Of a stretch of DNA of 64,000 nt, positions 40,152 to 58,166 are shown one piece after another. The DNA comes from Parcubacteria group bacterium M6-OD1-3 (GTDB lineage Bacteria; Patescibacteriota; Minisyncoccia; Moranbacterales; UBA9337). Location of the stretch: positions 70,408 through 134,407 of the forward strand of contig LSNR01000014.1 in the NCBI GenBank assembly GCA_003056165.1, written 5' to 3'. The number at the start of each line of letters is the position of its first letter. Within the stretch, counting starts at the first letter, position 1. The translations under genes and the position numbers were made by a program. The notes beneath the pieces are model-generated. The model searched no databases. It was given only the letters and a program-made list of their open reading frames with translations, and was not told where the DNA came from.

Positions 40152-40291
40152 TTAGTCTTTGCAGTGGAATTTGTTTTTGAACAATATCTAATCTTTTTAA
40201 CTGATGGTTTGACTTAAAACCTCTTTTGAAATATTATTAGGTTAAATAGATAGAAAATTTTACAATCGTTATCAAAAAATAATAAATTTAT

Positions 40292-41557
40292 ATGAAGCAA
40301 TCAAAATTATTTACTAAAACGCAAAAATTTGCTCCGAAAGATGAAATTTCAAAAAATGCACAACTTTTGATTCGTGCTGGCTTTGCACATAAAGAGATGG
40401 CGGGAGTTTATTCATTTTTACCTCTAGGTTTACGCGTGATTGAAAAAATTTCTGAAATTATTAAAGTAGAAATGGACGCTATAGGTGGAATGCAAATGAA
40501 AAATTCTGCTTTGCAAGTACAAAATGTTTGGGAAAAAACAAATCGTTGGGATGATGCTGTAGTAGATAATTGGTTTAAAACGGAATTGAAAAACGGAACA
40601 AAAGTTGGGCTTGCTTTTACTCACGAAGAAGCAATGACCAATTTAATGAAAAATTTTGTTTCTTCTTATAAAGATTTACCAGCTTATCCTTATGATATTC
40701 GAACAATGTTTCGCAATGAAACACGAGCTAAGTCTGGATTGATGCGAGGACGAGAATTTTATTGGAAAGCTCTATACTCTTTTTCTATTGATGAAGCACA
40801 ACATAATGAATTTTATGAGCGAGCTAAAAAATCTTATCAAAAAATTTATAAGAATGTTGGTTTAGGTGCTAAAACTTATTTAACTTTTGCTAGCGGTGGA
40901 ACATTTTCTAAATATTCTCATGAATTTCAAACTATTTCCGAAGCAGGAGAGGATATAATTTATGTTGATGAAGAAAAAAATATAGCAATCAACAAAGAAG
41001 TTTTGACCGACGAAGTTTTGTCTGATTTGAATGTCAATAAGGATAATTTAAAAGAAACTAAAGCAATTGAAGTTGGCAATATTTTTTCACTAGGTACAAA
41101 ATTTTCTGAGCCGATTGGTTTAACTTATAAAAATAAAGATGGAAAAGAGAAAAAGGTTTTTATGGGCAGTTATGGAATTGGTATTGGACGCTTAATGGGG
41201 ACTATTGTAGAAGTGTTTGCTGATGATAAGGGCATTGTTTGGCCGGAAAGTGTAGCGCCGTTTAAAATACACTTATTAGTACTCGGTACTCAGTCGGTAG
41301 TTCGCAGTCAGGCTGATGAACTTTATAGGAAGTTACAGGAGGCTGGGGTGGAAGTATTATATGACGAAAGAGATATTCAACCGGGGCAAAAATTTGCTGA
41401 TTCAGATTTGATTGGTATTCCATATCGAGTGGTAATTTCTGAGCGTTCATTGAAAGATGGTGGTGTAGAATTAAAAAAACGAAATGAAGAAAAAGGTAAA
41501 ATTGTTAAAATAAAAAATTTATTAGAAAATAAAAAATATGCAAGAAATAATAATTAG
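40292..41557 (+). CDS. proS: Prolyl-tRNA synthetase (short form lacking the INS editing domain)
   Basis: QLLIRAGF…GVYSFLPLGLRVI is the class II ProRS N-terminus. At 421 aa it is much shorter than the bacterial ProRS that carry the INS editing domain. Confidence 0.88.
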   Translation: MKQSKLFTKTQKFAPKDEISKNAQLLIRAGFAHKEMAGVYSFLPLGLRVIEKISEIIKVEMDAIGGMQMKNSALQVQNVWEKTNRWDDAVVDNWFKTELKNGTKVGLAFTHEEAMTNLMKNFVSSYKDLPAYPYDIRTMFRNETRAKSGLMRGREFYWKALYSFSIDEAQHNEFYERAKKSYQKIYKNVGLGAKTYLTFASGGTFSKYSHEFQTISEAGEDIIYVDEEKNIAINKEVLTDEVLSDLNVNKDNLKETKAIEVGNIFSLGTKFSEPIGLTYKNKDGKEKKVFMGSYGIGIGRLMGTIVEVFADDKGIVWPESVAPFKIHLLVLGTQSVVRSQADELYRKLQEAGVEVLYDERDIQPGQKFADSDLIGIPYRVVISERSLKDGGVELKKRNEEKGKIVKIKNLLENKKYARNNN

Positions 41558-42032
41558 TTGGCTCACAGGAATGCCAAGGGAACTAGCGACTTTTTTAATG
41601 GCGATGTTACCAGTAACGGAATTGCGAGCTTCTATTCCTGTGGCAATTTTGAAATATCATTTATCTCCAATGTCGGCGTTTTTCTGGTCGGTATTAGGAA
41701 ATTCATTCTTGGGAGTAATAGTTTTATTATTGATTGAGCCTATCGTAAAAAGCATAATAGAGCGGTTCGATTTTTTAAATAATATTTGGCAAAAATATAT
41801 TGGCAGATTGCGAGAAAAAAACAAAGAAAAATTTGCTAAATGGGAAGCATGGGCGTTAATTTCTTTCGTAGCGATACCTTTGCCGATGACCGGAGCGTTT
41901 AGCGGAGCGGTTGCTGCTTCCATTTTTCAAATTAAGGCAAGAAAAGCAATTCCGTTAATAATTTTAGGTTGTGCAATTTCCGGAACAATAGTGACAGCAT
42001 TAACTATATTTAGTAAAAATTTTGTGCATTAA
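41538..42032 (+). CDS. Small integral membrane protein (possibly COG2426-like)
   Basis: Four predicted TM helices. Confidence 0.45.
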   Translation: MQEIIISWLTGMPRELATFLMAMLPVTELRASIPVAILKYHLSPMSAFFWSVLGNSFLGVIVLLLIEPIVKSIIERFDFLNNIWQKYIGRLREKNKEKFAKWEAWALISFVAIPLPMTGAFSGAVAASIFQIKARKAIPLIILGCAISGTIVTALTIFSKNFVH

Positions 42033-42046
42033 AATTTTATAAAATT

Positions 42047-42811
42047 ATGGAAAAATTAATAATTGGAAATTTAAAAATGAATATTGTTTCTGATGTCGAA
42101 CGAGAAAACTATTTTAAAAGTTTTAAAAAAAGTATTAGAAATAAAAAACTTAAGCAGACAAAAATAATACTTTGTCCGCCGACAATTCACTTGGAAACAT
42201 TTACTAAAAAAATTAAAAATAAAAACGTTTCTTTCGGTGCACAAAATGTTTATTACGAAAACAAAGGTTCTTATACTGGAGAAATTTCTCCTGCAATGGT
42301 AAAAAATTTTGGTGGGGAATATGTTATCATTGGACACAGTGAAAGACGAAAATATTTTAACGAAACTGATAAAACTGTAAATCAAAAAATTAAGCTGTCA
42401 CTTAAAGAAAAATTACAACCGATTTTTTGTTTGGGAGAAACTTCTGAGGAAAGAAAAAGTGGGGAATTAAAAAATATTATTAGCAAACAATTAAAAAAAG
42501 GATTAGCAGATATTCCTAAAAATAAAATTTTCAAAGTAATCATTGCCTACGAGCCGATTTGGGCGATAGGGACCGGTGACATACCGACATCTGAAAATAT
42601 TATGGAGGTACAAATTTTAATTAAGAAAATTTTAGTAGATAATTTTTCTTTAAATATTAACAAGTTACCGAAAATATTATACGGTGGTTCAGTGAATTAT
42701 CGGAATGCCAAAAATCTTTGTTTAGATGTTGGAATGGATGGAGTATTAGTTGGTGGAGAATCTTTGCATCCCGTTGATTTTTTGAAAATAGTTGAAGTTT
42801 TGGATAAATAA
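42047..42811 (+). CDS. tpiA: Triosephosphate isomerase
   Basis: IIGHSERR and AYEPIWAIGTG motifs. Confidence 0.9.
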   Translation: MEKLIIGNLKMNIVSDVERENYFKSFKKSIRNKKLKQTKIILCPPTIHLETFTKKIKNKNVSFGAQNVYYENKGSYTGEISPAMVKNFGGEYVIIGHSERRKYFNETDKTVNQKIKLSLKEKLQPIFCLGETSEERKSGELKNIISKQLKKGLADIPKNKIFKVIIAYEPIWAIGTGDIPTSENIMEVQILIKKILVDNFSLNINKLPKILYGGSVNYRNAKNLCLDVGMDGVLVGGESLHPVDFLKIVEVLDK

Positions 42812-42861
42812 TTAAATTAAAAACTTTATATAATATTTTATTTTATAAAGTCAAAATAAAT

Positions 42862-43728
42862 ATGTTAGAGTATGTAAAAGATATCTTAGTCGAAGCTAAG
42901 GAAAATAATTATGCCGTAGGAGCATTCAATACTACAAATCTGGAAACCACACAAGCTATTTTAGAAGCGGCACAAGAAAAAAAATCTCCTGTAATTATTC
43001 AAGTAACGGAAAAAACGATGGATTATGCTGGCGGAAGAAATATTTTTCAAATAATTAAAAATACAGCTGAGTATTATTACCCAGAAATTCCAGTTGGTAT
43101 TCATTTAGATCATGGAAAAAGTTTCGAAGTAATTCAGCGCGCAATAGAAATCGGTTTTACTTCAGTGATGTACGATGGTTCTAGAGGAAAATATGAAGAT
43201 AATTTAATGACCACAAAAAGAATTTCTGAATATTGTCACAAAAAAAATATTAATATTCAAGCGGAGTTAGGGAATGTTCCTTATTTGAAAGAAGTTGGAA
43301 TTATAGATGTTGATTGGGATAAATATATGACTGATCCGGAACAGGCGGAAAAATTTGTAACTGAGACAAGTATCGATGCTTTAGCTGTAGCAGTCGGTAA
43401 TGCCCATGGTTTTGCCAAAGAGCGATCTAAACCAGACTACGAGAGATTGGATAATATCAGCAAACGATTAGATGTTCCTTTAATTATGCATGGTGCCTCA
43501 GATTGGGAAGAAGAGAAAGTTAGGAATGCTATTGAAAGAGGTATTAGTTGTTTTAATGTTGATACTGCCTCAAGGGTAGCTTTTATTACTAGTTTGGTTA
43601 AAACTATCAGCGAAACAAAAGAACTTTCATATGACATTAGAACTCATTTGGGAAAGGCTAGGAAAGCGATAAAAGAAACTGTTATGCATAAGATGGATAT
43701 TTTTAAAAGTGCTGGAAAAATTAAGTAG
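42862..43728 (+). CDS. fba: Class II fructose-bisphosphate aldolase
   Basis: AVGAFNTTNLE…, an HLDHG metal site, and a 288-aa length. Confidence 0.85.
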   Translation: MLEYVKDILVEAKENNYAVGAFNTTNLETTQAILEAAQEKKSPVIIQVTEKTMDYAGGRNIFQIIKNTAEYYYPEIPVGIHLDHGKSFEVIQRAIEIGFTSVMYDGSRGKYEDNLMTTKRISEYCHKKNINIQAELGNVPYLKEVGIIDVDWDKYMTDPEQAEKFVTETSIDALAVAVGNAHGFAKERSKPDYERLDNISKRLDVPLIMHGASDWEEEKVRNAIERGISCFNVDTASRVAFITSLVKTISETKELSYDIRTHLGKARKAIKETVMHKMDIFKSAGKIK

Positions 43729-43746
43729 TAATTATGAATATAAGAA

Positions 43747-44928
43747 ATGAGTGAGATAAATAAAGTGCTGGTCGTAGCTCCGGTACCGTTTTTTGTTGAC
43801 AGAGGAACTCCGATGCGTATTTTGGAAGAGTCTTTAGCATTGGAAAGAAAGGGTCTGAAGGTTGATATCGTTACCTATCATTTGGGTCGAGATATTAAAG
43901 ATTTGGCACCGGAAAGTAAAATTAAAATACATCGCGTCGTTAGGTTTTTGTTTTGGTATAATAAAAAAGAATCGGGACCAAGCTGGCAAAAAATAATCTT
44001 GGATATGTTATTGATTGTCAAAGTTTTACGGGTCTACTTCAAAATCAAGCCGGATGTTATTCATGCTCATTTACACGAAGGCGTTTTAATTGGTTGGCTT
44101 GTTCAAAAAATTATTTTTTGGAAAAAAATAAAACTAGTAGCTGATTTTCATGGAGAATTAGTTAATGAAATGACCTCACACGGCTATTTAAACGGAGGCT
44201 GGCTCAAAAAAATTTTTCATTTTCTGGAAAAAGTAATTTTTTCAATGGGTGATTGGACAATTGCCAGTTCCGGAGAATTAAAGACAATAATTTATAAATC
44301 AAAAAAAGATAATAGAGTGGATATTGTTTTGGATGGCGTAAATTTAGAAAGATATAATTTAAAAAATAAAGACGCTCATACCAACACAAACAATACTTTG
44401 CTAACAATTATTTATTCTGGAGCATTCGTCCAGAATAAAGGAATCGATTTGTTATTGGAGGCTATTTTAAAAATTTCGCAAAAAAATATTAAGGATGTAT
44501 CATTTATTTTGGCGGGAGGTCCAATTGAAAATATAAAAGACTTTATTAAAAAAAATAATTTGAAAAAAATAGTTAAAATTATTAGTCCGTTGGACTATAA
44601 GGATTTGCCAGAAGTTAATATATTGGGAGACATTGCGATTGATCCGAAAACTTCACAAGTCGGGCAAGCAAGTGGAAAAATTTTACAATATATGGCAGCA
44701 GGTTTACCGGTAATTTGTTTCGACAGAAAAAATAATAGAAAATATCTGAAGGAAGCAGGATATTATGTGACAGATTTTTCCGCTGACGGATTAGTCACGG
44801 CAATTTTATATTTCAAAAAAAATCCGGACAAAATAAAAACAATGTCCGCAACTTCTCGAGAAATGGCTAAACAATTCTCTTGGGACAAATCCGCCAAAAA
44901 AATAACTGAAGTTTATCAAAAAATTTAA
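43747..44928 (+). CDS. Glycosyltransferase family 1 (GT4-like)
   Basis: Characteristic C-terminal domain pattern (…QASGKILQYMAAGLPVICFD…). Confidence 0.75.
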   Translation: MSEINKVLVVAPVPFFVDRGTPMRILEESLALERKGLKVDIVTYHLGRDIKDLAPESKIKIHRVVRFLFWYNKKESGPSWQKIILDMLLIVKVLRVYFKIKPDVIHAHLHEGVLIGWLVQKIIFWKKIKLVADFHGELVNEMTSHGYLNGGWLKKIFHFLEKVIFSMGDWTIASSGELKTIIYKSKKDNRVDIVLDGVNLERYNLKNKDAHTNTNNTLLTIIYSGAFVQNKGIDLLLEAILKISQKNIKDVSFILAGGPIENIKDFIKKNNLKKIVKIISPLDYKDLPEVNILGDIAIDPKTSQVGQASGKILQYMAAGLPVICFDRKNNRKYLKEAGYYVTDFSADGLVTAILYFKKNPDKIKTMSATSREMAKQFSWDKSAKKITEVYQKI

Positions 44929-44964
44929 TAAAGAACCTATTTTTTCTGTCTAAGAAGGGAAGTA

Positions 44965-45018
44965 TCCATTTAAATAACCATTTAAATAACCATTTAAATA
45001 TCCATTTAAATAACCATT
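44965..45018 (+). repeat. Tandem array (4-5x) of a 12-13-bp unit (A)TCCATTTAAATAA containing the palindromic core ATTTAAAT; candidate operator array or island boundary
   Basis: Read directly: atccatttaaataa ccatttaaataa ccatttaaata tccatttaaataa ccatt. It lies immediately upstream of the AbrB-like gene 45032. Confidence 0.7.
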
Positions 45019-45031
45019 AAAAAATAAAAAT

Positions 45032-45214
45032 ATGAGAAGAAAACTTGAAGATCGTAGTATAAGAAAAATTTCTAAGCGTGGTTCTGGTAGTTACGGCGTA
45101 ACTATTCCAATTGAACTCGTTCGTCAATTAAAATGGCGAACAAAACAAAAAGTTATCATCAAAAAATCTGGAAACAAACTAATTATTGAAGATTGGAAAC
45201 CTACTAGACGATAG
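45032..45214 (+). CDS. AbrB/SpoVT-MazE-like small DNA-binding protein, paralog of 26275
   Basis: MRRKLEDRSIRKISKRGSGSYGVTIPIELV…LIIEDWKP. Confidence 0.55.
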   Translation: MRRKLEDRSIRKISKRGSGSYGVTIPIELVRQLKWRTKQKVIIKKSGNKLIIEDWKPTRR

Positions 45215-45280
45215 ATGGGAAATAAAGCAACTAACAAAAAAGCAAAGAATTATTTGAAAAATCTAGGATATTAAAATAAA

Positions 45281-46120
45281 ATGAAAAAAGAATTAAAAAA
45301 CAATAAAGACATTGCTGTTTTTGAACGAGGGGAAGTAAGAAAAGTTTGGAAAAAAGAAAAATGGTATTTTTCAGTGATTGATATTGTAGCTGTGCTGACT
45401 AATCAAAGTGATTTTAAAAAAGCAAAGACTTACTGGACTACATTAAAAAATCGTCTTAAAAATGAGGGAAGTGAGTTGGTCACAAAATGTGACCAACTGA
45501 AAATGCAATCGATTGATGGCAAGTTTTATAAAACAGATGTCGCTGATGTTGAAACAATTTTACGATTGGTGCAATCTATACCGAGTAAAAAAGCCGAACC
45601 CTTTAAATTGTGGTTAGCAAAAGTAGGGAAGGAAAGAATTGACGAAATCGCTGACCCAGAACTTGCAGTGAATAGGGCAAAAGAAATTTATGAGAAAAAA
45701 GGATATCCAAAAGATTGGATAGACAAAAGAATGCGAGGCATTGCAGTAAGAAATACTTTAACTGATGAATAGAAAAGAAGAGAAATAAAAAAGGGTTATG
45801 AATTTGGAATTTTAACCAATGAGATTTATAAAAATACTTTTAATGAAGATTATAAATCTTTGATGAAAATAAAAAACTTAGACAAGAAGAACAAAGATAA
45901 TTTGCGAGATCATATGGGAGATATTGAGTTGATATTAACAATGTTAGCCGAAGTAACTTCCACGGATATTTCTAAAGCAAAAAATTCAAAAGGATTAAAA
46001 GAAATAAAAACTGATATTAAAAAAGGCGGAAAAATCGCTGGAGAAGCAAGACAAAAAATCGAAAAAGAAACCAACAAAAAAGTTATTACTGGTGAAAATT
46101 TTAAAAAACTAAATAATTGA
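45281..46120 (+). pseudogene. DinD-like / Bro-N-domain gene interrupted by a single in-frame TAG (45770-45772)
   Basis: ORFs 45281-45772 and 45860-46120 are in the same frame. The N-terminus has a Bro-N-like motif (GEVRKVWKKEKWYFSVIDIVAVL), and the C-terminal segment (…RDHMGDIELILTMLAEVTSTD…GGKIAGEARQKIEKETNKKVIT) resembles the E. coli DinD C-terminus. Confidence 0.55.
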
Positions 46121-46172
46121 CGAATGCTGATATGAGTAGTAAGATTAGGGAAAAGATAGAGTAATTTTTTAA

Positions 46173-47210
46173 ATGTGTTTATTTATGGAAAATAAAAATA
46201 TAATTGAAAAAATAGAAAAACTTAGAAATTCACGAGTTATAACCTATATAACTAGCGACCGACAAGGTCCAGTCAATGCTAAAATTGCTGGAGATATTAT
46301 TCCAATTATCAGTAATCAATTAAGAAAAATTGGCAAAACTGATAAAATTGATTTGTTTTTGTATAGTGCTGGTGGTGATACTATGGTTCCTTGGCGTATG
46401 GTTTCGATGATTAGGGAATATTGTAAGGAATTTTCTGTGTTAATTCCGTATAAGGCACATAGTTCTGCTACTATGATTTCTTTGGGTGCAGATAAAATTG
46501 TTATGAGTGATTTATCAGAGTTATCACCGATTGATCCTTCAACCGCTAATGTTTTTAACCCAGTTGACCCGCAAAATCCACAAAGTCGAATTCCAATTTC
46601 AGTTGAGGATGTTATGGCGTATTTTGATCTAGCGAAAAATAAATTTGGTATAAAAAATGATGAAGATCTAACTAAAATTTTTAACAAGTTTATAGACTCT
46701 AATCCGCAAATTCATCCTTTAGCACTTGGTAATGTAAATCGTACGCATAATTTAATTAGAATTTTAGCAAAACGATTATTAAAAAGTCATCAAGAGCCAA
46801 TGAAAGATGATGTTATTGATAAAATTGTTGATAATTTTACAGAGAAATTATATTCACACCAATATTATATTGGTCGCAAAGAAGCCAAGGAAGACTTAGG
46901 AATTGAATCGGTTAAATATGCGGAGGATGACTTGGCTAATGCAATGACTGAACTATATGAAGCGTATAAAAAAGAAATGGAATTAGATGTTATTTTTAAT
47001 TCAGAAAATGAATTAGGTGAAAATGTTTCTGTAAATAAAAAGGAATATAAAATAGCATTTGCAGAAAGTGCAAGTTTATCAAATTATTTTAACCTATCAA
47101 TTGAATTTAAAAAACAACAAATAACCACGACACAACAAACTCCACAAGGACCAATGCAAATCCCGCAAGAACAAGTTGGCTTTAAGATTATTGGACAAGG
47201 GTGGAAGTAA
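46173..47210 (+). CDS. ClpP/S49-fold 'SDH' (serine dehydrogenase proteinase)-family serine protease-like protein with an unknown C-terminal extension
   Basis: …LYSAGGDTMVPWRMVSMIREY…VLIPYKAHSSATMISLGADKIVMSDLSELSPIDP… resembles the SDH/S49 pattern SPGG…AMSGGTLIALAADEIIM…GPVDP. First gene of a tight three-gene operon. Confidence 0.5.
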   Translation: MCLFMENKNIIEKIEKLRNSRVITYITSDRQGPVNAKIAGDIIPIISNQLRKIGKTDKIDLFLYSAGGDTMVPWRMVSMIREYCKEFSVLIPYKAHSSATMISLGADKIVMSDLSELSPIDPSTANVFNPVDPQNPQSRIPISVEDVMAYFDLAKNKFGIKNDEDLTKIFNKFIDSNPQIHPLALGNVNRTHNLIRILAKRLLKSHQEPMKDDVIDKIVDNFTEKLYSHQYYIGRKEAKEDLGIESVKYAEDDLANAMTELYEAYKKEMELDVIFNSENELGENVSVNKKEYKIAFAESASLSNYFNLSIEFKKQQITTTQQTPQGPMQIPQEQVGFKIIGQGWK

Positions 47211-47232
47211 TAAATAATTAAAAAATAAAAAT

Positions 47233-47865
47233 ATGGAAAATAAATTAAATAAGTACGATTCAATATTGGCTGCTGTTGAATTTGCTGATCCAATGATTGA
47301 GGTGCAAAAAGCGCTGGATGATAGCCAGTTATTAAAAGATAAAAAATATAGTTTAGGATTGTCAGAGGCTAGTATTAAAAAAATAAACCCTCAAAATCCT
47401 TCTGAGGTCTTAGTCTCTCTAAATAGGATACAACTTCAAGAATCTGAGTTTTTAGTTGAAAAAAGTAATGAAATTATAAATATTATTCAGTCGCTTAATG
47501 AAGCTAGGAGCGCTGTAGTGAATAATTCTGTTAATAAAATTAAATTTTGTGGTGCAATTTTTACCATAAAACACTTAATTGATGACAAAGAAATTGGCAC
47601 AATAGAAAAAATCTTTAATTTAAAAAATGTAAATAAAGAAACAAGAAGTTTTAATTTTAAATCAGATGATAGTAAATATAATTATAATATTGTTACGGAA
47701 TTTGATTATAAAGTAAAAAAGCATTTAAAGATAATTTTTGATGTAAATAATATACACCAAACGGAAGAAAAAAAAATTGAACAACTGGAAGATATTATAA
47801 ATGAAATAAAAAATAAAATAGATAAAAAGAAAAACTTTTTTAATTTTATTGAAACTTTATTATAA
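47233..47865 (+). CDS. Hypothetical protein (210 aa), middle gene of the protease operon
   Basis: Follows the upstream gene after a 22-bp gap. No family was recognised. Confidence 0.5.
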   Translation: MENKLNKYDSILAAVEFADPMIEVQKALDDSQLLKDKKYSLGLSEASIKKINPQNPSEVLVSLNRIQLQESEFLVEKSNEIINIIQSLNEARSAVVNNSVNKIKFCGAIFTIKHLIDDKEIGTIEKIFNLKNVNKETRSFNFKSDDSKYNYNIVTEFDYKVKKHLKIIFDVNNIHQTEEKKIEQLEDIINEIKNKIDKKKNFFNFIETLL

Positions 47866-47871
47866 ACAAAT

Positions 47872-48468
47872 ATGCTTTCACAGGACAATAAAACAATTGA
47901 AGATGATATAGAATTTTTTGAAGAGCCCACTACTCCAAAAAAAATAGAGAGAAGTGTAACTTTTGATGACTTAAATCCATTAAGAGAAGCTATTATTAAT
48001 TTGGATAATAAGGCTAATAAAATAAGTAGTAAGTACGAGAAAATAGAAAAAGGTATCAAGAATCAAGAAGCAGAACTTAAAAAGCAAAAGAAAAACTTTA
48101 ACAACCAGAAAGAAATTATTAATGATCAAAAAAATGACATTAAAGCAATAAAGGCGGATCTCGAAAATCAAACCAATAGAATCCCTGAAATAGTTGGTTT
48201 GTTTTCTGCGATAATAGCAATTGTATTAATAGATGTTAGTGTGATTAAATCTGCTCAGAGTTTTCTTGGAGCCATATTGTTAATAATATCGTTGACATGT
48301 TCTATTGCTATATTTGCTGTGTTAATACACTCCTTTTTTTCGCCAGATGATAAATCTGAGTTTGGTAAATCATTTTGGGTGCCAATAAGCATCCTCATAA
48401 TTTTTGTAATTATAGGAGGCGCAACTTATTTCACAGGTAATGATTTGTACAAATTTTTGGAAAAATAA
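47872..48468 (+). CDS. Coiled-coil protein with three C-terminal TM helices
   Basis: N-terminal charged coiled-coil (…KKQKKNFNNQKEIINDQKNDIKAIKADLENQ…) and then three hydrophobic helices. Follows the previous gene after a 6-bp gap. Confidence 0.5.
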   Translation: MLSQDNKTIEDDIEFFEEPTTPKKIERSVTFDDLNPLREAIINLDNKANKISSKYEKIEKGIKNQEAELKKQKKNFNNQKEIINDQKNDIKAIKADLENQTNRIPEIVGLFSAIIAIVLIDVSVIKSAQSFLGAILLIISLTCSIAIFAVLIHSFFSPDDKSEFGKSFWVPISILIIFVIIGGATYFTGNDLYKFLEK

Positions 48469-48543
48469 AAGTGATACAGGGAAATCGTGTAATGAAAAAA
48501 TAAATTTATTGAAAATAAAAGCAAGGACTAACTTAAAATAAAT

Positions 48544-49554
48544 ATGGTGGTAAAACAAAAGAAAAAGGTTATAGTTAAAACACTTTTTTCTGAAAACAAA
48601 AAGAATACCAAAAAGAATATAAAATTTACATTCATAGATTTATTTGCAGGGATTGGTGGTATTAGATTAGGCTTTGAAAAAGTTGGAGGAGAATGTGTTT
48701 TTACTTCTGAGTGGGATAAATTTGCAGCCGAAACATATCGAGAAAATTTTGAGGAACTTCCTTACGGAGATATAACAAAAATTATTCCAGAAGAAATCCC
48801 GCCTTTTAATATTTTGCTAGCTGGTTTTCCATGCCAGCCATTTTCAAACGCAGGATTAAAAAAAGGTTTTGATGACACCAGAGGAACTCTATTTTTTGAT
48901 ATAGCAAGAATTATTAAACATCATAAGCCAGAGGTTGTTTTTCTTGAAAATGTAAAAGGTTTCAGGGGGCATGATAAGGGAAACACCTTTAAAACTATAA
49001 AAAGGAAATTAGAAAGTTTAGGATACAAAGTATTTGACAAAGTGTTAAATGCAAGAGACTTCGGTGTACCACAAAATAGAGAGCGTATTTATATAATTGC
49101 ATTTTTAGATAAAAATATTAATTTTGAATATCCTGTTGAAAATAAAAAAACAAAACTTGGGAACATATTAGAGCAGTTTGTTGATGAAAAGTATACTCTT
49201 TCAGACAAGCTTTGGGAAGGACATCAAAGAAGAAAAAAAGAACACAAAGCAAAAGGCAATGGATTTGGATATTCTATATTTGATAAGGATTCTAAATACA
49301 CAAGCACGATGAGTGCTAGATATTACAAAGACGGTTCTGAAATTTTAATTAAACAAAATGGAAAAAATCCAAGAAAACTTACTCCTAGAGAAGCGTTGCG
49401 CTTGCAAGGATATCCAGATACATATAAAATTATAGTTAGTGATACACAAATGTATAAGCAATGTGGTAATAGTGTAGCAGTGCCTGTAATAAAAGCGTTG
49501 GCGAAAAAAATCATGGAGACAGATGTAAAATTTAAGAAACATAATTTTAAATAA
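48544..49554 (+). CDS. DNA (cytosine-5)-methyltransferase, closest by motifs to M.HhaI
   Basis: Motifs I (FIDLFAGIGG), IV (GFPCQPFSNAG), VI (ENVKG), VIII (QNRERIYII) and X (QCGNSVAVPVI), with M.HhaI-like flanking residues (RGTLFFDIARI). Confidence 0.9.
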   Translation: MVVKQKKKVIVKTLFSENKKNTKKNIKFTFIDLFAGIGGIRLGFEKVGGECVFTSEWDKFAAETYRENFEELPYGDITKIIPEEIPPFNILLAGFPCQPFSNAGLKKGFDDTRGTLFFDIARIIKHHKPEVVFLENVKGFRGHDKGNTFKTIKRKLESLGYKVFDKVLNARDFGVPQNRERIYIIAFLDKNINFEYPVENKKTKLGNILEQFVDEKYTLSDKLWEGHQRRKKEHKAKGNGFGYSIFDKDSKYTSTMSARYYKDGSEILIKQNGKNPRKLTPREALRLQGYPDTYKIIVSDTQMYKQCGNSVAVPVIKALAKKIMETDVKFKKHNFK

Positions 49555-49555
49555 T

Positions 49556-50578
49556 ATGAAAATTAACAAGCTTAAAATAGAAAGAAGAGTGTTTAATATT
49601 AATTTAAAATTTTATTTTTTCTTAAAACACTTGGTAAAAATTAAATTATCAGATATTCAAGCGAGTAAGCTTTTTAAAGTATATACTTTAAATCAAAAAA
49701 TAGGATACAAAAGAAATATTACAAAATTAGTAAAATTTACAGAAGCTGAGCTAAAAAGTGGGAGCGATAAACAGAATTTTTTATTTGATATATTAGATGA
49801 GATAGATAGTAGTGTTGATTTAAAATTGTTTATTTTTAGTTTAAATTTGTACATGATTAAAGATTTGCTTTTGCAAGAAGCAAAGCTTAAAGATTTATTA
49901 GATACATCAAATCTTGATAATTTAGATCCGTTATCCTTAGAATATGATAAAATAACCTTGTATAGTCCATATTCGACGAGGGTAAATGGTGCTTTATTAT
50001 CATTGATATTTTTTGATAAATTGGAAAAACAAGAGGCTAATTTTATTTCAAGGGATGCTGACAATTTTGTGAAAAAATTGTCAAAAATTGCGATAGATTT
50101 AAAAAATAAAGGATTGGAGCCAAATCAGATATTTATGTTGATGTTTAGCGAAAGCATAAATCAGTCTATAATAAGTGATAGTGGGTCAAATTATGAAGAT
50201 AGAATTTTAGTAGTTCTAACTTCCATAGGGATTGATGAAGCTAAAATAAAAAAAACTCATGATAAGAATGACGCCTCAACTGAGTTTGATTTTTTCTTTG
50301 AGTTAAATAATAAAACCTATGGAATAGGGGCAAAAAGGACATTAAGAGAAAGATACAAGCAATTCATTAAAACTGCTCAAATGAGTCAAATTGATATAAT
50401 GATAGAAATTACACTAGGTTTAGATTTAAACGAGGAAAAAGCAAAAAATATTCTTAAGCACGGTATTTATATTTTTTTGTCTGATGAAGTTTATCAGTCG
50501 AGAGATTTTTTGAAAAAAATGGAAGGTGTTTTTTCTGTGAAAGAGCTGACATTAAAAACATTAAAATATCTAGAATAA
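49556..50578 (+). CDS. Putative cognate type II restriction endonuclease (unknown family)
   Basis: Its start overlaps the methyltransferase stop (TAATATG), and it is 340 aa. The only support is the typical R-M gene arrangement. Confidence 0.4.
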   Translation: MKINKLKIERRVFNINLKFYFFLKHLVKIKLSDIQASKLFKVYTLNQKIGYKRNITKLVKFTEAELKSGSDKQNFLFDILDEIDSSVDLKLFIFSLNLYMIKDLLLQEAKLKDLLDTSNLDNLDPLSLEYDKITLYSPYSTRVNGALLSLIFFDKLEKQEANFISRDADNFVKKLSKIAIDLKNKGLEPNQIFMLMFSESINQSIISDSGSNYEDRILVVLTSIGIDEAKIKKTHDKNDASTEFDFFFELNNKTYGIGAKRTLRERYKQFIKTAQMSQIDIMIEITLGLDLNEEKAKNILKHGIYIFLSDEVYQSRDFLKKMEGVFSVKELTLKTLKYLE

Positions 50579-50589
50579 AGTTTTGTTTT

Positions 50590-50850
50590 CTAGCTACTCA
50601 TCTTTAATTTTATTTCTTCGTCTTGCAATGATTGAATGACATCGTCTAAATCACCAGCAAGAGTATTTTCTAAACCGCTCTAAGATTTTTTAATACGATG
50701 ATTAGTGACGCGGTCTTGCGGAAAATTACAAATACGAATTTTTTCACTATGGTCACCTATTCCAATTTGTTCTTTGCGTTATTCGCCTAGCTCTTGCACG
50801 TGCTTGTCTTCTTTCATTTGCAATAGACGAGAACGCAAAAATTTTATTTG
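50590..50850 (-). pseudogene. Fragment of a class I peptide chain release factor (C-terminal ~85 aa) with two in-frame stops
   Basis: The minus-strand translation …[72 protein letters not shown]… matches the RF1/RF2 C-terminus (…[26 protein letters not shown]…LDEV..GDLDE.I…). There is no upstream GGQ domain. Confidence 0.6.
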
Positions 50851-50864
50851 CAATTTACAAAAAA

Positions 50865-51335
50865 GTGATCAATAATAAAAGTGTAAAGATTATTTTTTTG
50901 TTCACTATGAAAATAAGTAAAGATTTAGCTATTAAAATTTTAAAGTATTTGGATCAGCATAAAAGTTTTTATTTTCCTTTTTTAGTGATGTGCAAAGAAT
51001 ATACGGAAGAGGATAATGATTTTGTAGAAATTGAGCCAGAAGAATGGAAAAATATCGCAGAAAATGATATATATCAAACATTTGAGTTGTGGGAGAATTT
51101 ACAAAATTTAGATGAAGAAACATTAGAATTAATGTCGAAAGGATTTATAGAAAAGATTGAAAGTAGAAATGTAATAGATGAAATTTCAAAATTAGCGAAA
51201 GAATATAGAAAGAAATGGAAGGTGGAGTTATGGGAATCTGAAGATATTGAAGAATTTGGGATGAATGAATATTATGGTGGCAAAGCTGAAGGACTTGAGG
51301 AAGCACTCGAAATATTACAAGAAGTGAAATTATAG
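50865..51335 (+). CDS. Hypothetical acidic protein (start may be the internal Met MKISKD…)
   Basis: ORF of 156 aa, strongly acidic. Confidence 0.4.
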   Translation: MINNKSVKIIFLFTMKISKDLAIKILKYLDQHKSFYFPFLVMCKEYTEEDNDFVEIEPEEWKNIAENDIYQTFELWENLQNLDEETLELMSKGFIEKIESRNVIDEISKLAKEYRKKWKVELWESEDIEEFGMNEYYGGKAEGLEEALEILQEVKL

Positions 51336-51599
51336 GCAACTGGATTTTGGGTAAAGAAGTCAAAAGATTATAATTTTCTTTTAATTATGCACGAGCATTT
51401 GTTTGTATTTCAGAAATAAAAGTAAAAAGAAGAATAGTGGATATGAAAATGAAAACAAGAATTAAAACAAAGAAAAACAAAAGTATGACATTTCTAAATG
51501 TAATTGACAAAAACAAAAAATCTCTTGATTTTTTTGTTAAAATAGGTTAGCTTGAAGTTAGTATTTTTGAAAAATTAAATAAAAACAGGGGGGCGAAGA

Positions 51600-52226
51600 A
51601 TGAAAAAATTAATAGAAGAACTTAAAATAAGGTCTATCGAGGATGCTTTATTTTTTGGCTCGATGACGATTTTGGCTGTTCTAAAGAAAAGAATAGCTCA
51701 ACAAGAATTATTCGCGAATAAATTGAGGGAGCTATTAAAAGTTCCTAGCACAAGTGATATTGAGCTAAAGTCTACTAATAAGAATTTGGTAGTAATTAAC
51801 AAAGAAATTAAAGCACTTAATTCATTAATTCTTGAAGCCAGATGCAAGCCACCTTTAGTTCCTTACCGCGAGGATTGGTTTACAATGAATGAGGAAGTTA
51901 TTTGCTTTATTGATGGAGAATTTGTGCCGGCGAAAATTTATAATAATAGAGATACATACAAAGATGGTACGGTTGCTCTGGCTGTTGTTTACGGCAGGCG
52001 AGTCAGACCGGATGGTTTTTTCAGCGGGTACGGAGATATGTATTCTATCTCCGACCCGCGAATTATGAAAAAATGGGAATATGAATATTTTTGCCAACAT
52101 TTTCGCTTTGCAAAAAAGTGGGCAATAATGGCAGAAGAAAAGGACTCAGGATTTAACTCTTTTGAATTCATGACCAAGATATTTGCCATTTCATGTGCCA
52201 AAGGGTATATGAAATGGAAAATATAA
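51600..52226 (+). CDS. Hypothetical protein; the 3' half has elevated GC
   Basis: 208-aa ORF with a GGGG-containing RBS-like stretch upstream (acagggggg cgaag-aATG). Confidence 0.45.
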   Translation: MKKLIEELKIRSIEDALFFGSMTILAVLKKRIAQQELFANKLRELLKVPSTSDIELKSTNKNLVVINKEIKALNSLILEARCKPPLVPYREDWFTMNEEVICFIDGEFVPAKIYNNRDTYKDGTVALAVVYGRRVRPDGFFSGYGDMYSISDPRIMKKWEYEYFCQHFRFAKKWAIMAEEKDSGFNSFEFMTKIFAISCAKGYMKWKI

Positions 52227-52272
52227 TATATTGGCATAGTTTTTTATTAAAAATCAAGATGGAGAAAAAAAG

Positions 52273-52485
52273 ATGGAAATCCCAACGGTTATTAATGGTC
52301 GAAGTGTTAGAATTTCAGTTCCCGAAGGAGCAGTGCTTGGTGATTTAGCACAGCTTACTCAAATGGAAATGCAAATTTCCCCTGATCAGGAATTGGTTGT
52401 AGCTAAAAATGGAAAGCCTTGTGTTGTTAGTCAGGACCATATACTGTGTCCCGACGATGTTGCTGTTTGGCGACAGAAGGATTAA
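52273..52485 (+). CDS. Small (70 aa) possibly beta-grasp (ThiS/MoaD-like) protein lacking a C-terminal GG
   Basis: VINGRSVRISVPEGAVLGDL…ELVVAKNGKPCVV…D.L.PDDVAV resembles the ThiS pattern. GC is elevated. Confidence 0.35.
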   Translation: MEIPTVINGRSVRISVPEGAVLGDLAQLTQMEMQISPDQELVVAKNGKPCVVSQDHILCPDDVAVWRQKD

Positions 52486-52858
52486 ATAAGATTTTATCTT
52501 CTCTTGACGAGGGAAGCTGAGTACTTGGAAATTTTTCCTGGTACTCTTTTTATTTTAATAAAAATTTACGCCGACTTACATACAACTTCTCACAAAATAA
52601 CTTCCTACTGCAATTTCTCAAAACTAAAAATTTTTGTAACGAAACTTATTTTGCAAGAAATCTATAATTTTCATTTGTCTATAAGAAGAGTCTGACAGTT
52701 TTCGCTTATAAAGTGGAGTATATTTTTGTTTTTGCAGTGAAATAGAAAGGAATTTTTAAAAAGTTTGGATGTTTAGGTGGAAGTGTGATAAAATTAAATT
52801 GTGTTTTTAGAAAAAATAAATTAGTGTTAATTATTAAAATATTCTAGATAAAATAAAA

Positions 52859-54241
52859 ATGAGCAAAAAAAATAAAATAATTTTAGGGAGTATTGGTATA
52901 GTCGTGATAATGATGGGGATAATAGGGTTTTATAGTTTTAAAAAGACGAGTAAGATTTCAATCCTTTCGAATTCAATTTCCATAGCGAAAAGTGTTATCA
53001 ATTTATTGCCAATTAAAGAAGACGCTAAAAAAGAGATGCAAACGATAGATGCTTTATCCAAAGAATTTATTAAACAAGACGGGCGAGAGAGGCGCTATTT
53101 GATTTTATTGCAAAATAATATGGAATTGCGACCAGGTGGCGGTTTTTTGGGGCAATATGCAGTAATGAAAATAAAAAATGGAGAAATCAGTAAATTGTAT
53201 TTCGAGGATGCAAATTTATTAGACCAACGAATTCGAGCGAAAATTCCTGCTCCATATCCATTTAAGAGAATGATGAGTATAAAAAAATGGAAATTTCGCG
53301 ATTCTAATTTTTCACCCGATTTTCCAACGAATGTGGAGAAGGCAAAATATTTCTATCGACTTTCTGGACGAAATAATAATTTTGACGGTGTAATTGCTCT
53401 TAATGCAGATACTTTTAATCATATTTTTGACTTAACAGGACCGTTAACTGTACCCGGTTACGGAGTGAAATTGGACAGTAAAAACGCTACTTTAAAATTG
53501 GAAGAAATTGTTGAAAAAAAATATATTTTAGATGATAGTATTGATACGCAAAACAGAAAAGCAATTATGAAAAGTTTGATGCATTTAATCGCGGATAAAC
53601 TTAATGGCATTGGCAATGTTCCAAAAATTTCAAAGTTTGTTTTAAATGAGTTGCGGAATAAAGATGTAATGCTTAATTTTAAAGATGCGAAATTACAAAA
53701 AATGGTGGAGGATGTTCATTGGGGCGGTAAAGTATCGGAAGATTGGGCTGGTGACTATTTAATGTTGTCCGATGCTAATATGGGAGCTTTGAAAACAAAT
53801 TATTATGTAACGCGGGAAATTAATTATAATGTTGATTTAACTGGCGAGAAGCCAATTGCCGACTTGGAAGTTCTCTACAAAAACAGTGCTACTTACGGAG
53901 ATTGGCGAACTAGTGATTATCATTCGTATTTCAGAGTTTATGTTCCCAAAGGTTCAAATTTGTTAGAAAGAAAAATGGTTAGTTATCCACTTGTGCAAGA
54001 AGATTTTGGCAAAACATATTTTGGATTTTTATTGCATGTTTTGATGAATAGGCAAACTGATATTAAACTTAAATATGAACTTCCGGAAAGTGTTAGAAAT
54101 GGCGATTATAAATTACTTATTCAAAAGCAATCCGGAATGGGAGATGTGCCAGTGAAAATTCATATCAAAACTAAAGATGGAGAATTTAATCGAGAAGCAA
54201 TTCTCAAGAAAGACTTAAAATTTGAAGTAAAAGAGCAGTAG
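52859..54241 (+). CDS. DUF4012-like envelope-associated protein (N-terminal TM)
   Basis: …RRYLILLQNNMELRPGGGFLGQYAVMKIKNG… resembles the DUF4012 core. Confidence 0.55.
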   Translation: MSKKNKIILGSIGIVVIMMGIIGFYSFKKTSKISILSNSISIAKSVINLLPIKEDAKKEMQTIDALSKEFIKQDGRERRYLILLQNNMELRPGGGFLGQYAVMKIKNGEISKLYFEDANLLDQRIRAKIPAPYPFKRMMSIKKWKFRDSNFSPDFPTNVEKAKYFYRLSGRNNNFDGVIALNADTFNHIFDLTGPLTVPGYGVKLDSKNATLKLEEIVEKKYILDDSIDTQNRKAIMKSLMHLIADKLNGIGNVPKISKFVLNELRNKDVMLNFKDAKLQKMVEDVHWGGKVSEDWAGDYLMLSDANMGALKTNYYVTREINYNVDLTGEKPIADLEVLYKNSATYGDWRTSDYHSYFRVYVPKGSNLLERKMVSYPLVQEDFGKTYFGFLLHVLMNRQTDIKLKYELPESVRNGDYKLLIQKQSGMGDVPVKIHIKTKDGEFNREAILKKDLKFEVKEQ

Positions 54242-54329
54242 AATGTTTTGGCACTACCAATAAATGTGCAGTCTATCTCAAAAAACAATGAAACTTATTT
54301 TAATAAAATTTGGGAAGGCATGGATGACT

Positions 54330-55501
54330 ATTCGGAAAAATGGTTTGATTAAGGGCGGAAGAAGGGTGCTGGAATATTTATTTGTTTTTTTGAAAGCATT
54401 CTTTAGCGCTAGAAGAGGAGATATTTTATTCATTACTGGAGGAGTGGGAGATAGTGCTCATTATCGTTCGTATAATGTGGCGGAAGAATTAAAAAAATAC
54501 GGCTTCAAATGTTCGGTGATGATTCAAGATAACCCATTTTTATATCGCTATGCAACAGGTTTTAAAATTTTTATTTTTCAAAAAACAATTACTACGCCAA
54601 CTTTAAATAAATTAATTAAAGAAATTAAAAACAAGAAAAAGAAATTATTTTTGAAGCTGATGATTTGATTTTTGATGAAAAATATTTACAGCAGATGGAT
54701 TATTGGAAACAGATGGATAACTTTACTAAAAAACAATATGCTGGTGGGCAGGGTAGTGAAATTCTGAATGATGATTATGTAAAAGTCTGTACAACAACAA
54801 CGACTTTTTTAAAAAAGAAATTGGAAGAGTATGGTAAAAAAGTTTTTTTGGTACCAAATAGAGTTTGTGATGCGGAGTTGACAATAGCGAATAGATTGTG
54901 GGAAGAAAAATTGGAAAATAAAAATCCTTCTTTTCCAGTTACTCCCTTGAAAAGTGATGAGGAGATACGAATCGGTTATTTTAGTGGAACGATTTCGCAC
55001 AATAAAGATTTTGCTACAGTAACAGATGTCCTAATGAGAATTATTGAGAAATACAAAAAAGTAAAATTGGTTTTAGTTGGACCACTAGATATTGAAAATA
55101 AATTAAATAAGTTTGCGGATAGAATAGAACAATTGCCGATGGTTTCGCGTCAAAAACATTATGCTAATGTGGCGAGTGTAGATATAAACATTTCTCCCTT
55201 GGAAATAAACAATGAATTCTGTCAATCAAAATCAGAGTTGAAATTTTTTGAAGCGGGAATTGTTGGTGTTCCGACAGTGGCGACGGCGACGCAAACTTTT
55301 CAAGAAGCAATAAATGATGGAATAGATGGTTTTGTGGCAAAAGACGAGAATGAGTGGTTTGAAAAGTTGGAAAAACTTATTGCGAATAATAATTTTCGTG
55401 TTAAAATGGGAAAAGAAGCCAGAAAAACAGTCTTGAAAAAATATACTGTTAAAAATAGTAATAATGAGGTTTATTATAAATATTTAAGAAAAATTATTTA
55501 G
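54330..55501 (+). pseudogene. Glycosyltransferase (GT1-type C-terminal domain) split by a frameshift in an A-rich run near 54626-54650
   Basis: The frame-0 ORF ends …KNKKKKLFLKLMI*. Frame 2, read back from 54665, gives …KQEKEIIFEADDLIFDEKY…, a typical GT junction. The downstream part carries a GT1 motif (ELKFFEAGIVGVPTVAT…). Confidence 0.5.
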
Positions 55502-55709
55502 TAGTGACTTGGTCACTACTAACATTGTTGATGAAATTATGAGAAGATTTAGAAAAAAAGTGCGAATTATTTGGATAATCATTTCTTTACTGGCGGTTAT
55601 TTCAATGGTTGGATTTTTGATTGCTCCGGCTTTTATGGGATATTAAAAGTAGTTAAATAAATTCGTATAATATATTAATAATTTTAATTAATTTAATTTT
55701 TAAATAGCA

Positions 55710-56102
55710 ATGCGTTTGTTTGTGATTATCTTTTTCGTGTTTGCAATAGCAGGTGTTACAATTTTTTTATCCGCTCCGGCGATTAAAGAATTTCGTCGCT
55801 CTAAAGCAATTGATAAAGAGATTAGTGAATTGCAAGCAGAGGCTGAAAAAATAAATACTGATAATAATTTTTTAAGGGAAAAGATTAAATATTTAAAATC
55901 TGATGATTACAAGGAACGTGTAGCCAAAGATAGACTTAATTTGCGAAATCCCGGCGAAAAAATCATTGTCGTGCAACCTGGTATTGGTCAAGAAAACAAT
56001 CAAAATGAAAATTCAAACCAACAAAATAACATCAATAGCTCTGCTGAAAATGAGTCCTTATCCAATGTTCAAAAATGGTATAAATTTTTATTTGGAAAAT
56101 AG
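55710..56102 (+). CDS. ftsB: Septum formation initiator FtsB/DivIC family
   Basis: N-terminal TM helix, a coiled coil, and …YLKSDDYKERVAKDRLNLRNPGEKIIVV. Confidence 0.7.
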   Translation: MRLFVIIFFVFAIAGVTIFLSAPAIKEFRRSKAIDKEISELQAEAEKINTDNNFLREKIKYLKSDDYKERVAKDRLNLRNPGEKIIVVQPGIGQENNQNENSNQQNNINSSAENESLSNVQKWYKFLFGK

Positions 56103-56197
56103 CTCTTGCAGTTATGGTAATTAGGTTACCGTAATTACAAGATGTTGTTTTTTGTTGATAAAAGTTGTATAATTTAAGCGACATTAAATTAAAAATT

Positions 56198-57373: not shown

Positions 57374-57462
57374 ATACCAAAGGATATTGACTTTTATTTA
57401 AGAATCGTTATAATAAATTCTGTTGTCTTTTATTTTATTTAAATAAAATAAAATAAAAATTT

Positions 57463-57479
57463 GCGCCGTTAGCTCAGTT
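57463..57479 (+). other. 17-nt duplicate of the tRNA-Lys 5' end (GCGCCGTTAGCTCAGTT); a tRNA fragment or scar
   Basis: Identical to the first 17 nt of the tRNA at 57561. It is followed by unrelated sequence with a CCCGCC…GGCGG hairpin. Confidence 0.4.
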
Positions 57480-57560: not shown

Positions 57561-57633
57561 GCGCCGTTAGCTCAGTTGGTAGAGCAACAGCCTTTTAAGC
57601 TGATGGTCGGGGGTTCAAATCCCTCACGGCGCA
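57561..57633 (+). tRNA. tRNA-Lys (anticodon UUU)
   Basis: GCGCCGT-TA-GCTC-AGTTGGTA-GAGC-A-ACAGC-CTTTTAA-GCTGA-TGGTC-GGGGG-TTCAAAT-CCCTC-ACGGCGC-A. Confidence 0.85.
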
Positions 57634-57634
57634 C

Positions 57635-58014: not shown

Positions 58015-58062
58015 AACTAAAACTTCTTACAATTAATAACTAGTTAATAATCAGTAGTTAAC

Positions 58063-58110
58063 GCCGACGCTTAGTTGGTAGAGCTGATAGTAACTAACTT
58101 ACTATCAGGG
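58063..58110 (+). other. Degenerate tRNA-like 5' half (acceptor plus a D-arm similar to tRNA-Lys, no T-arm)
   Basis: GCCGACGCTTAGTTGGTAGAGC… resembles the tRNA D-arm region GCTCAGTTGGTAGAGC. Confidence 0.3.
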
Positions 58111-58116
58111 TTTTTA

Positions 58117-58166
58117 AATTAAATGGATATTTAAATATCCATTTAAATATCCATTTAAATAATTTT
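58117..58166 (+). repeat. Second ATCCATTTAAAT-type repeat cluster, including the 16-bp palindrome GGATATTTAAATATCC
   Basis: ggatatttaaatatcc atttaaatatcc atttaaataa. The motif is shared with the array at 44965-45018 and lies about 120 bp upstream of glyA. Confidence 0.6.

Follow-up and report, generated by a model that had tools for sequence, protein, structure and literature searches.

A probable defence island with interchangeable cargo, including a very conserved protease module, beside a glycosyltransferase gene in a Patescibacteria genome

In Patescibacteria very few defence systems are on record, and most of the systems of model bacteria are lacking there (PMC12366544, discussion). In known defence islands and hotspots, defence-type genes are clustered between core genes with conserved flanks, the site is empty in a relative, near-identical strains carry other cargo at it, and there is no dedicated integrase. 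Here we describe a locus with all of these properties in a 64-kb stretch of contig LSNR01000014.1 from Parcubacteria group bacterium M6-OD1-3 (assembly GCA_003056165.1). We call this whole stretch the window, and all positions are counted from its first letter unless another contig is named. The locus differs from known islands in being small (6.6 kb), in having a composition indistinguishable from that of its host, and in residing in an ultra-small, Patescibacteria-type genome. We consider it very probable that it is a defence island at a recombination hotspot, bounded on the left by the stop codon of a conserved GT4 glycosyltransferase gene and on the right by the promoter of a gene, likewise conserved, for a 208-aa protein. 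Its features are listed in Table 1.

Table 1. Features of the island and its right flank, with positions in the window.
Feature	Position	Strand	Remarks
Accessory island	44926..51514		6,586 bp; limits set by comparison with a related species
12-bp tandem array CCATTTAAATAA x4.8	44966..45022		Tandem Repeats Finder (TRF) score 100; 10 nt upstream of the AbrB-like gene
SpoVT/AbrB-MazE-fold DNA-binding protein, 60 aa	45032..45214	+	PF04014 E=9e-8, above Pfam cutoff
DinD/Bro-N gene, PADLOC candidate PDC-S13, 279 codons	45281..46120	+	Split by TAG at 45770-45772
SDH-type ClpP/SppA-fold serine protease, 341 aa	46185..47210	+	C-terminal half helical plus beta, family-specific
g210, soluble, 210 aa, second module gene	47233..47865	+	Near-orphan
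g198, 198 aa, third module gene	47872..48468	+	Coiled coil at the N-terminus; 3 transmembrane segments predicted by a hydropathy scan
Type II DNA (cytosine-5) methyltransferase	48544..49554	+	PF00145 9e-111, TIGR00675 5.6e-106, PADLOC MTase_II 1e-129
Cognate type II restriction endonuclease (by homology), EcoRII-C (PD-(D/E)XK) family, 340 aa	49556..50578	+	Family assigned via homologues
Decayed prfA (release factor 1) 3' remnant	about 50593..50860	-	Last 78-90 codons, in-frame TAA and TAG
Acidic open reading frame (ORF), 142 aa, isoelectric point (pI) 4.4	50907..51335	+	Last gene of the strain-variable cargo, left of the L008 breakpoint at 51352
Right-end island segment	51352..51514		Common to the window strain and the L008 strain; absent from the related species
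208-aa ORF, conserved flank, outside the island	51600..52226	+	Helical hairpin and small beta domain
Lineage-specific indel, roughly 490 bp	52228..52717		Contains a 70-aa ORF of 42.3% GC (52273-52485)

Two contigs of a related species, L113 and L114, represent the empty site. Their flanks are 83-87% identical to those of the window in nucleotide sequence, with 77% aa identity for the glycosyltransferase and 87% for the DUF4012 protein. Both contigs have the gene order aminoacyl-tRNA synthetase, Sm_multidrug_ex, triosephosphate isomerase (TIM), fructose-bisphosphate aldolase (FBA), glycosyltransferase, 208-aa homologue, DUF4012, glycosyltransferase, DivIC, GT4 glycosyltransferase and serine hydroxymethyltransferase (SHMT), with no gene between the first glycosyltransferase and the 208-aa homologue. 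By blastn, L113 is colinear with the window over 40207-44925 and then jumps to 51515-52227. Because these contigs go straight from the glycosyltransferase to the 208-aa homologue and DUF4012, the segment 44926-51514 is an accessory insertion that is absent from an otherwise syntenic relative.

The same site is filled differently in a sister strain. L008 (GCA_003056195.1) is 99.7% identical to the window over 51352-56434, and upstream of 51352 the island cargo gives way to genes for a 487-aa protein and for a methyl-directed nuclease like DpnI (PADLOC mREase_II, 2e-116), along with two small ORFs. The right-end segment lies between the position at which L008 identity begins and the position at which L113 homology resumes (51515). 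A third junction variant, L014, parts from the window at 51483. Because there is an empty state, an alternative cargo and a third junction, the site is a hotspot: empty in one lineage, with interchangeable cargo in another. At least two recognised defence genes are clustered in it (MTase_II and PDC-S13, with a nuclease of the EcoRII-C family), and, between conserved flanks, its presence or content differs from one close relative to the next. The original prediction, made from the sequence of the window, had been of an accessory or mobile island with defence content, to be checked by synteny; it is borne out by the different cargo of L008 and by L113/L114, where the glycosyltransferase and the downstream flank are adjacent. 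Its extent of 44900-52700 was too generous on the right, where the island ends at about 51514: the 208-aa ORF beyond this point is conserved flank and the 70-aa ORF is a separate indel.

For the restriction-modification (R-M) pair, the closest described systems are those of the EcoRII/Dcm family (EcoRII, SsoII and PspGI-type nucleases), with which it has in common a Dcm-like target-recognition domain, a nuclease from a family in which the EcoRII-C catalytic domain occurs, linkage of methyltransferase and nuclease, and horizontal transfer of the linked pair. The methyltransferase has the full motif set and matches PF00145 over profile positions 1-323 of 324. It had been predicted to be M.HhaI-like, and M.HhaI is indeed its best full-length match in the PDB (2e-75), with all catalytic motifs aligned. 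The likeness holds for the catalytic core but not for the target-recognition region: for residues 185-295 the sole PDB matches are the Dcm-like chains 3lx6 and 3me5 (6e-17), and there is none to M.HhaI at E<=0.01, although M.HhaI-type (GCGC) specificity would call for a resemblance in this region. This domain is of the Dcm/EcoRII type, and no HhaI- or HinP1I-like nuclease is present.

The restriction enzyme that had been proposed beside the methyltransferase corresponds to the 340-aa ORF, which starts 1 nt past the methyltransferase stop. It matches PF09019 weakly (E=0.016, below cutoff), and sequence and profile searches of the PDB gave no match. It has 1,008 homologues (the best 120 at 66-80% identity; Patescibacteria, Zetaproteobacteria and Campylobacterota), many of which carry a precomputed PF09019 assignment (67-71% identical), and one of which is named 'type II restriction endonuclease'. 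In three Moranbacteria contigs (L110-L112), a methylase of 72% aa identity is followed directly by a nuclease of 79% aa identity; this pair is 75.6% identical to ours in nucleotide sequence over 1,984 bp (window 48610-50579) and lies in a different neighbourhood, the two genes having been inherited together. Judged by sequence, the two genes are a horizontally mobile two-gene type II cassette, and its specificity is probably EcoRII/Dcm-like. It departs from EcoRII in that the N-terminal half of the nuclease is unrelated, with no EcoRII N-terminal effector domain detected, and in that CCWGG is not clearly avoided in the window. The observed/expected ratios in the window (0.69 for CCAGG, 1.02 for CCTGG and 0.75 for GCGC) are not diagnostic of the R-M target.

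Two further observations concern R-M systems more generally. In the Moranbacteria contig L110 (7125-8177), the nuclease is followed by a second cytosine-5 methyltransferase, 30% identical to the first, and the window has no such gene. Several 4-bp palindromes are strongly avoided in the window (observed/expected 0.16 for ACGT, 0.29 for GGCC, 0.48 for GATC and 0.52 for CATG), a pattern suggestive of earlier contact with R-M systems that target these sites.

The PADLOC model PDC-S13, with which the DinD-like Bro-N proteins of E. coli are grouped, has no more than the status of a computational candidate, and a literature search for it found nothing relevant. The gene in the window matches the profile at positions 3-158 and 189-270 of 286, and differs in being interrupted by a nonsense codon. 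A Bro-N/DinD-like gene with an in-frame TAG had been predicted here, and both halves do match PDC-S13: the first part (45281-45772) at 1e-72, with PF02498 at 1.8e-7, and the second (45860-46120), which is in frame with the first, at 7e-24. An intact 279-aa allele is found in the metagenome contig L020, which is 99.8% identical; within the split codon, the sole difference between the two is G>A at 45771, which turns TGG into TAG. A sequencing error was rejected as the source of the TAG since the same allele is present in three independent assemblies (including L001 and L017). Recoding of TAG or a suppressor tRNA was also rejected: there are only three ordinary tRNAs, the other allele has TGG, and TAG ends 10 of 51 long ORFs. 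The TAG is a real, recent nonsense polymorphism, by which the gene is predicted to be inactivated in this strain, while the L020 copy is intact.

The AbrB-like protein resembles the MazE/AbrB (SpoVT) antitoxins and regulators in having a swapped-hairpin domain, in being small and very basic (pI 11.5), and in being encoded behind repeated operator-like sites. Both the repeat array and the DNA-binding gene had been predicted, and both were found. The 12-bp array is probably an operator or promoter array of the gene. Unlike in MazE/AbrB antitoxins, no MazF, PemK or Doc is adjacent; no toxin adjoins the gene, no PemK, MazF, Doc or PIN domain was found in the island, and the next gene is the Bro-N/PDC-S13 gene, which is not the arrangement of a MazEF or other type II toxin-antitoxin pair. 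In addition, a paralogue lies among housekeeping genes, at 26276-26466 between thioredoxin reductase and RidA (67% nucleotide identity, over the region 26224-26466), and is preceded by a palindrome with a TTTAAA core, GTATCTTTAAAGATATCTTTAAAGATAC. Two further copies of the island's 12-bp motif, exact and phased, lie at another locus, 58139-58161. We therefore regard the protein not as an antitoxin but as a putative regulator that binds DNA and controls its own gene through phased operators. The second array (ATTTAAATATCC x2.8, 58129-58161) is situated just upstream of the SHMT gene, in a stretch of about 130 bp (58048-58179) that also holds a tRNA-like fragment and is absent from L113. L113 lacks the regulator gene and both arrays together.

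The remaining cargo of interest is the three-gene module, for which the closest described systems are NfeD (1510-N)/stomatin and SppA. Like these, it has a protease of ClpP/SppA/NfeD-like fold encoded upstream of a coiled-coil membrane protein, and by analogy this suggests that the protease may process its partner. In contrast to NfeD and SppA, the protease here has no membrane segment and has a unique C-terminal half of roughly 210 residues, its partners are swapped between loci, and its context is one of R-M and toxin-antitoxin genes. Unlike stomatin, g198 has no SPFH/Band_7 domain and gave only weak coiled-coil-type matches (Pfam; PADLOC at E of 7.6e-4 or above). A tight three-gene operon had been predicted at 46173-48468. 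Its spacing is indeed tight, with gaps of 22 and 6 nt, and its start is corrected by the homologues of the protease to the ATG at 46185.

The protease has a ClpP/crotonase-like fold. Its match to PF01972 passes the Pfam cutoff (50.9 bits against 31.3) over residues 3-127 only, and it falls below the cutoff of the NCBIfam equivalog NF047768 (58.9 against 250). The putative nucleophile is Ser93, within the invariant motif KAHSxATM, and candidate residues of a Ser-Asp-His triad, all invariant, are S93, D103/D109/D117 and H177/H188/H225. We found 2,251 homologues, the best 120 of them at 74% identity or more; copies in other lineages are 74-92% identical and include, among the matches listed, metagenome-assembled genomes (MAGs) labelled Omnitrophota. 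Sequence and profile searches of the PDB gave no match, and literature searches for PF01972 and SDH-type proteases gave nothing relevant. A viral origin was considered and rejected, since IMG/VR (2.9 million viral contigs) holds no close relative. The protease does match two PHROG families; its relatives in phages are limited to proteins of 24-25% identity, encoded in accessory regions of a few temperate phages.

For g210 there is one homologue only (P0248, 55% identity) in 5.8 billion proteins, and there is no match in Pfam, NCBIfam, PADLOC or PHROGs. In L100/L101, from Hainich groundwater, P0248 is encoded between a protease of 74% identity and a g198/c7 homologue of 55% identity, in the same gene order as in the window. 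g198 belongs to the neighbour family c7 (hhalign, 98.8%), whose members follow the protease and a protein of 214-247 aa in at least nine other loci. None of the models of PADLOC-DB v2 matches the protease, g210 or the partner families c12, c33, c48, c49, c14, c15, c51 and c5.

In a survey of protease neighbourhoods at 80 metagenome loci, one order that recurs is RadC, then the protease with one to four variable genes behind it, then type III Mod and Res. The gene after the protease starts a median of 7 nt past the protease stop. The two genes that follow include one for a transmembrane protein in 34 of 60 loci, and a type III Mod-like methylase lies six genes or fewer from the protease in 16 of 27. 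ResIII, N6_N4 methylases, AbiEii, Phd/YefM, NYN, DUF6941 and other restriction enzymes dominate the neighbourhood. The genes downstream of the protease vary, yet their coupling to it is tight in nearly all cases, and it is usually found amid R-M and toxin-antitoxin genes. In the same pairs of loci it is also much the better conserved protein, with a median identity of 82-85% against 51% for RadC, 60% for Mod and 55% for Res.

It is tempting to speculate that the protease and its interchangeable downstream partners form a previously unrecognised, widespread defence family in Patescibacteria and other ultra-small bacteria, and we put this forward tentatively. Such a family would probably be of the abortive-infection type. 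The constant protease could be a processing enzyme that responds to a trigger, its variable partner could serve as the sensor or the effector, and the module would typically ride beside R-M systems; the proposed partner sets are a fast-evolving soluble protein with a coiled-coil/transmembrane protein, DUF6941 with a transmembrane protein, TIGR04255 with HEPN-like proteins, and others. The alternative is a housekeeping or quality-control role: the protease would then be an enzyme of ultra-small bacteria that evolves slowly, is perhaps engaged in NfeD-stomatin-like processing and merely flanks defence hotspots. We regard this as possible, if doubtful. It would account for L018, in which the protease is solitary among housekeeping genes, and some of its neighbours elsewhere are FtsZ, FtsA, TGT and MurJ. 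Furthermore, g210 shows no homology by hhalign to the proteins in the equivalent position elsewhere (c12; c33, which is TIGR04255; c51), a point that does not help the defence-family proposal. However, the protease belongs to a block that is missing at this site in the sister species, and its partners are replaced wholesale and yet remain tightly coupled to it, as is typical of conflict systems; these two points favour a new defence module. The lack of an SPFH/Band_7 domain in the partners and neighbourhoods rich in R-M and toxin-antitoxin genes also argue against a housekeeping enzyme.

Several observations weigh against the reading of the locus as a whole as a defence island. The left junction of the alternative cargo in L008 was not recovered. 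The gene order around the site is not universally stable: in L002, synteny with the window comprises four genes and ends after the glycosyltransferase, with rpoB next. (L002 was the only close match in a scan of GTDB genomes with the glycosyltransferase protein, a scan that has no bearing on the island question.) The tetranucleotide composition of the island does not differ from that of the rest of the window, with z-scores mostly within +/-0.8. Finally, there is no integrase, no tRNA and no att-like repeat at the junctions beyond a 9-nt A-rich match.

Composition had been named as a mark of the island, and this did not hold. GC content is 0.284 in the island and 0.323 in the rest of the window, and neither the GC nor the tetranucleotide profile singles out 44926-51514. 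GC reaches peaks of 0.40-0.41 in 200-bp windows, and similar peaks occur elsewhere in the window. The rise in GC that had been noted in small ORFs at 42-45% is real, but it is modest (42.3% in the 70-aa ORF and 35.2% in the 208-aa ORF), and both ORFs lie outside the island, one in the separate indel and the other in the flank. We therefore dropped such profiles as an island marker.

While it is possible that the block is ancestral and was deleted in L113/L114, the window then representing the original state, we consider this unlikely. The prfA remnant shows that an old gene either was once there or came in with the DNA; the composition of the island is the same as that of the host; and the 9-nt match at the junctions fits a microhomology deletion as well as an insertion. 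A deletion does not readily explain why L008, 99.7% identical, has quite different genes at the site. The relatives of the cargo also lie elsewhere, the R-M pair in another context in Moranbacteria and the protease in other lineages, including Omnitrophota-labelled MAGs. The junctions point the same way: in L113 the glycosyltransferase stop abuts the promoter of the 208-aa gene cleanly, whereas the window keeps at its right junction a copy of the ancestral glycosyltransferase end and promoter sequence (...AAAAAATCTCTTGATTTTTTTGTTAAAATAGG).

A remnant of an integrated mobile element (a prophage, an integrative mobilizable element or a fragment of an integrative conjugative element) that has lost its integrase is in our view very unlikely. 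Bro-N domains are common in phages, the protease has its distant relatives in temperate phages, and a 9-nt repeat, CAAAAAAT(T/C), occurs at both island ends. In an AT-rich genome, however, this repeat is weak evidence for any specific mechanism, and the search for att-like repeats in the flanks gave, besides it, only AT-rich matches at chance level. The original prediction had noted that no integrase was seen, and indeed there is none among the island ORFs or the other window ORFs tested. The island also has no recombinase, transposase, capsid, terminase or replication gene, and neither a tRNA nor a repeat of att length marks its ends. The cargo differs between strains while the 163 bp at the right end are constant, and the protease has no close viral relative. 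The data give no support to 'mobile' if a self-mobile element is meant.

An assembly chimera, in which the window would join DNA of different organisms, is exceedingly improbable because L001, an independent assembly from another sequencing run, covers 43678-51661 including both junctions at 99.99% identity with a single mismatch, while L104 (a sister assembly, 99.6% identical) overlaps the left flank up to its end at 44864 and L008 the right flank from 51352; metagenome assemblies do break at 43473-43678, 44864, 51483-51661 and 52230-52330, but such breaks are expected from strain heterogeneity.

The right-hand part of the island and its flank hold the remaining features. The predicted 3' fragment of a release-factor gene on the opposite strand was recovered as the prfA remnant, which matches PDB RF1 chains (E=3e-15) at residues 255-326 of 333-342. 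It has two in-frame stops and no GGQ region, so that it does not encode a full-length RF1 with GGQ and PxT, and it is a genuine pseudogene fragment. It adjoins the R-M cassette, just outside it, and may be either a local scar or a piece of imported DNA. The acidic 142-aa ORF has no match in Pfam, NCBIfam, PADLOC, PHROGs or phage genomes. An Rfam search of the island gave no match at E<=0.1, and a scan for promoters and terminators gave a result at chance level. Beyond the island, the 208-aa protein belongs to a family of 51 representatives, and its homologue directly after the glycosyltransferase in L113/L114 is 66% identical (aa). Its AlphaFold2 model has a pLDDT of 94, and a PDB fold search with it returned only generic helical-hairpin matches, none of them informative. 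The indel that follows is identical in six contigs of the window species and absent from L113, which has about 125 nt of unrelated sequence there instead; its 70-aa ORF has no Pfam or PDB match.

The alternative cargo of the sister strain (L008:674-3535) consists of the 487-aa protein, the DpnI-like nuclease, a 71-aa CxxC-rich ORF and a 69-aa membrane ORF. The 487-aa protein has no match in Pfam, PHROGs or PADLOC and may be another uncharacterised defence gene. DpnI-like enzymes cut methylated GATC.

The wider window has a low GC content (about 31-32%), nearly all of its genes on the + strand and a strong GC skew. Its genes include those for IleRS, a class II aminoacyl-tRNA synthetase, TIM, FBA, several GT4 glycosyltransferases, DUF4012, DivIC and SHMT, as well as type IV pilus genes, GreA, LigA and GatA. 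Homologues of the island genes come mainly from MAGs labelled 'Patescibacteria group', Falkowbacteria, Moranbacteria, Magasanikbacteria and Parcubacteria. An exact look-up of the FBA sequence gave no record. Within the FBA gene, at 43473-43678, lie the start or end points of at least six independent metagenome contigs (43473, 43522 or 43678), a hint that strain heterogeneity has another site a short way upstream of the glycosyltransferase gene. Further downstream, a GT1-family glycosyltransferase (54264-55501) is split in the window into ORFs of 134 and 278 aa; the gene is intact (412 aa) in L008, L009 and L010, which are 99.7-99.9% identical, and either a frameshift or an error of sequencing in the source of the window accounts for the split. 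A 53-nt inverted match of 83% identity connects 52614-52665, which is intergenic upstream of DUF4012, with 22561-22612, at the 3' end of the LigA gene (20309-22552).

There is also a perfect 95-bp tandem repeat (x4.3, TRF score 812) at 57616-58021. Its first unit begins within the 3' end of the gene for tRNA-Lys(ttt), 57561-57634, upstream of which lies a 5' fragment of tRNA-Lys; the feature also takes in 57462-57479. Each unit recreates the last 20 nt of the tRNA and adds a 75-nt segment with a hairpin. L113 has the tRNA-Lys with the 95-bp unit in one copy only. The array looks like a serial duplication of an att site at a tRNA integration hotspot.

Taken as a defence island, the locus could work as follows. 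The site is filled with interchangeable cargo in the window species and empty in the related species, and from left to right the cargo here consists of the AbrB/SpoVT regulator with its array, the killed PDC-S13 gene, the protease module, the R-M pair, the dead prfA tail and the acidic ORF. By homology, the R-M pair would methylate the host DNA and cut unmethylated incoming DNA. The protease module may constitute a second layer, probably of the abortive-infection type, in which the protease would process or control a variable and often membrane-spanning partner. Cargo exchange could proceed via homologous recombination in the conserved flanks or via illegitimate recombination, rather than by an integrase encoded in the island.

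An island of this kind is an ordinary feature, and what this one adds is an undescribed and very conserved protease module. Should that candidate fail, the finding would be that of a well-delimited, ordinary defence island. The locus is nevertheless a clean case, found in nature, of a defence hotspot in Patescibacteria, with an empty site and two different fillings, and it has caught a candidate defence gene, PDC-S13, in both an intact and a freshly inactivated form. It also offers a concrete, testable candidate in the protease family, which has more than 2,000 members, is unusually conserved and has no PADLOC model.

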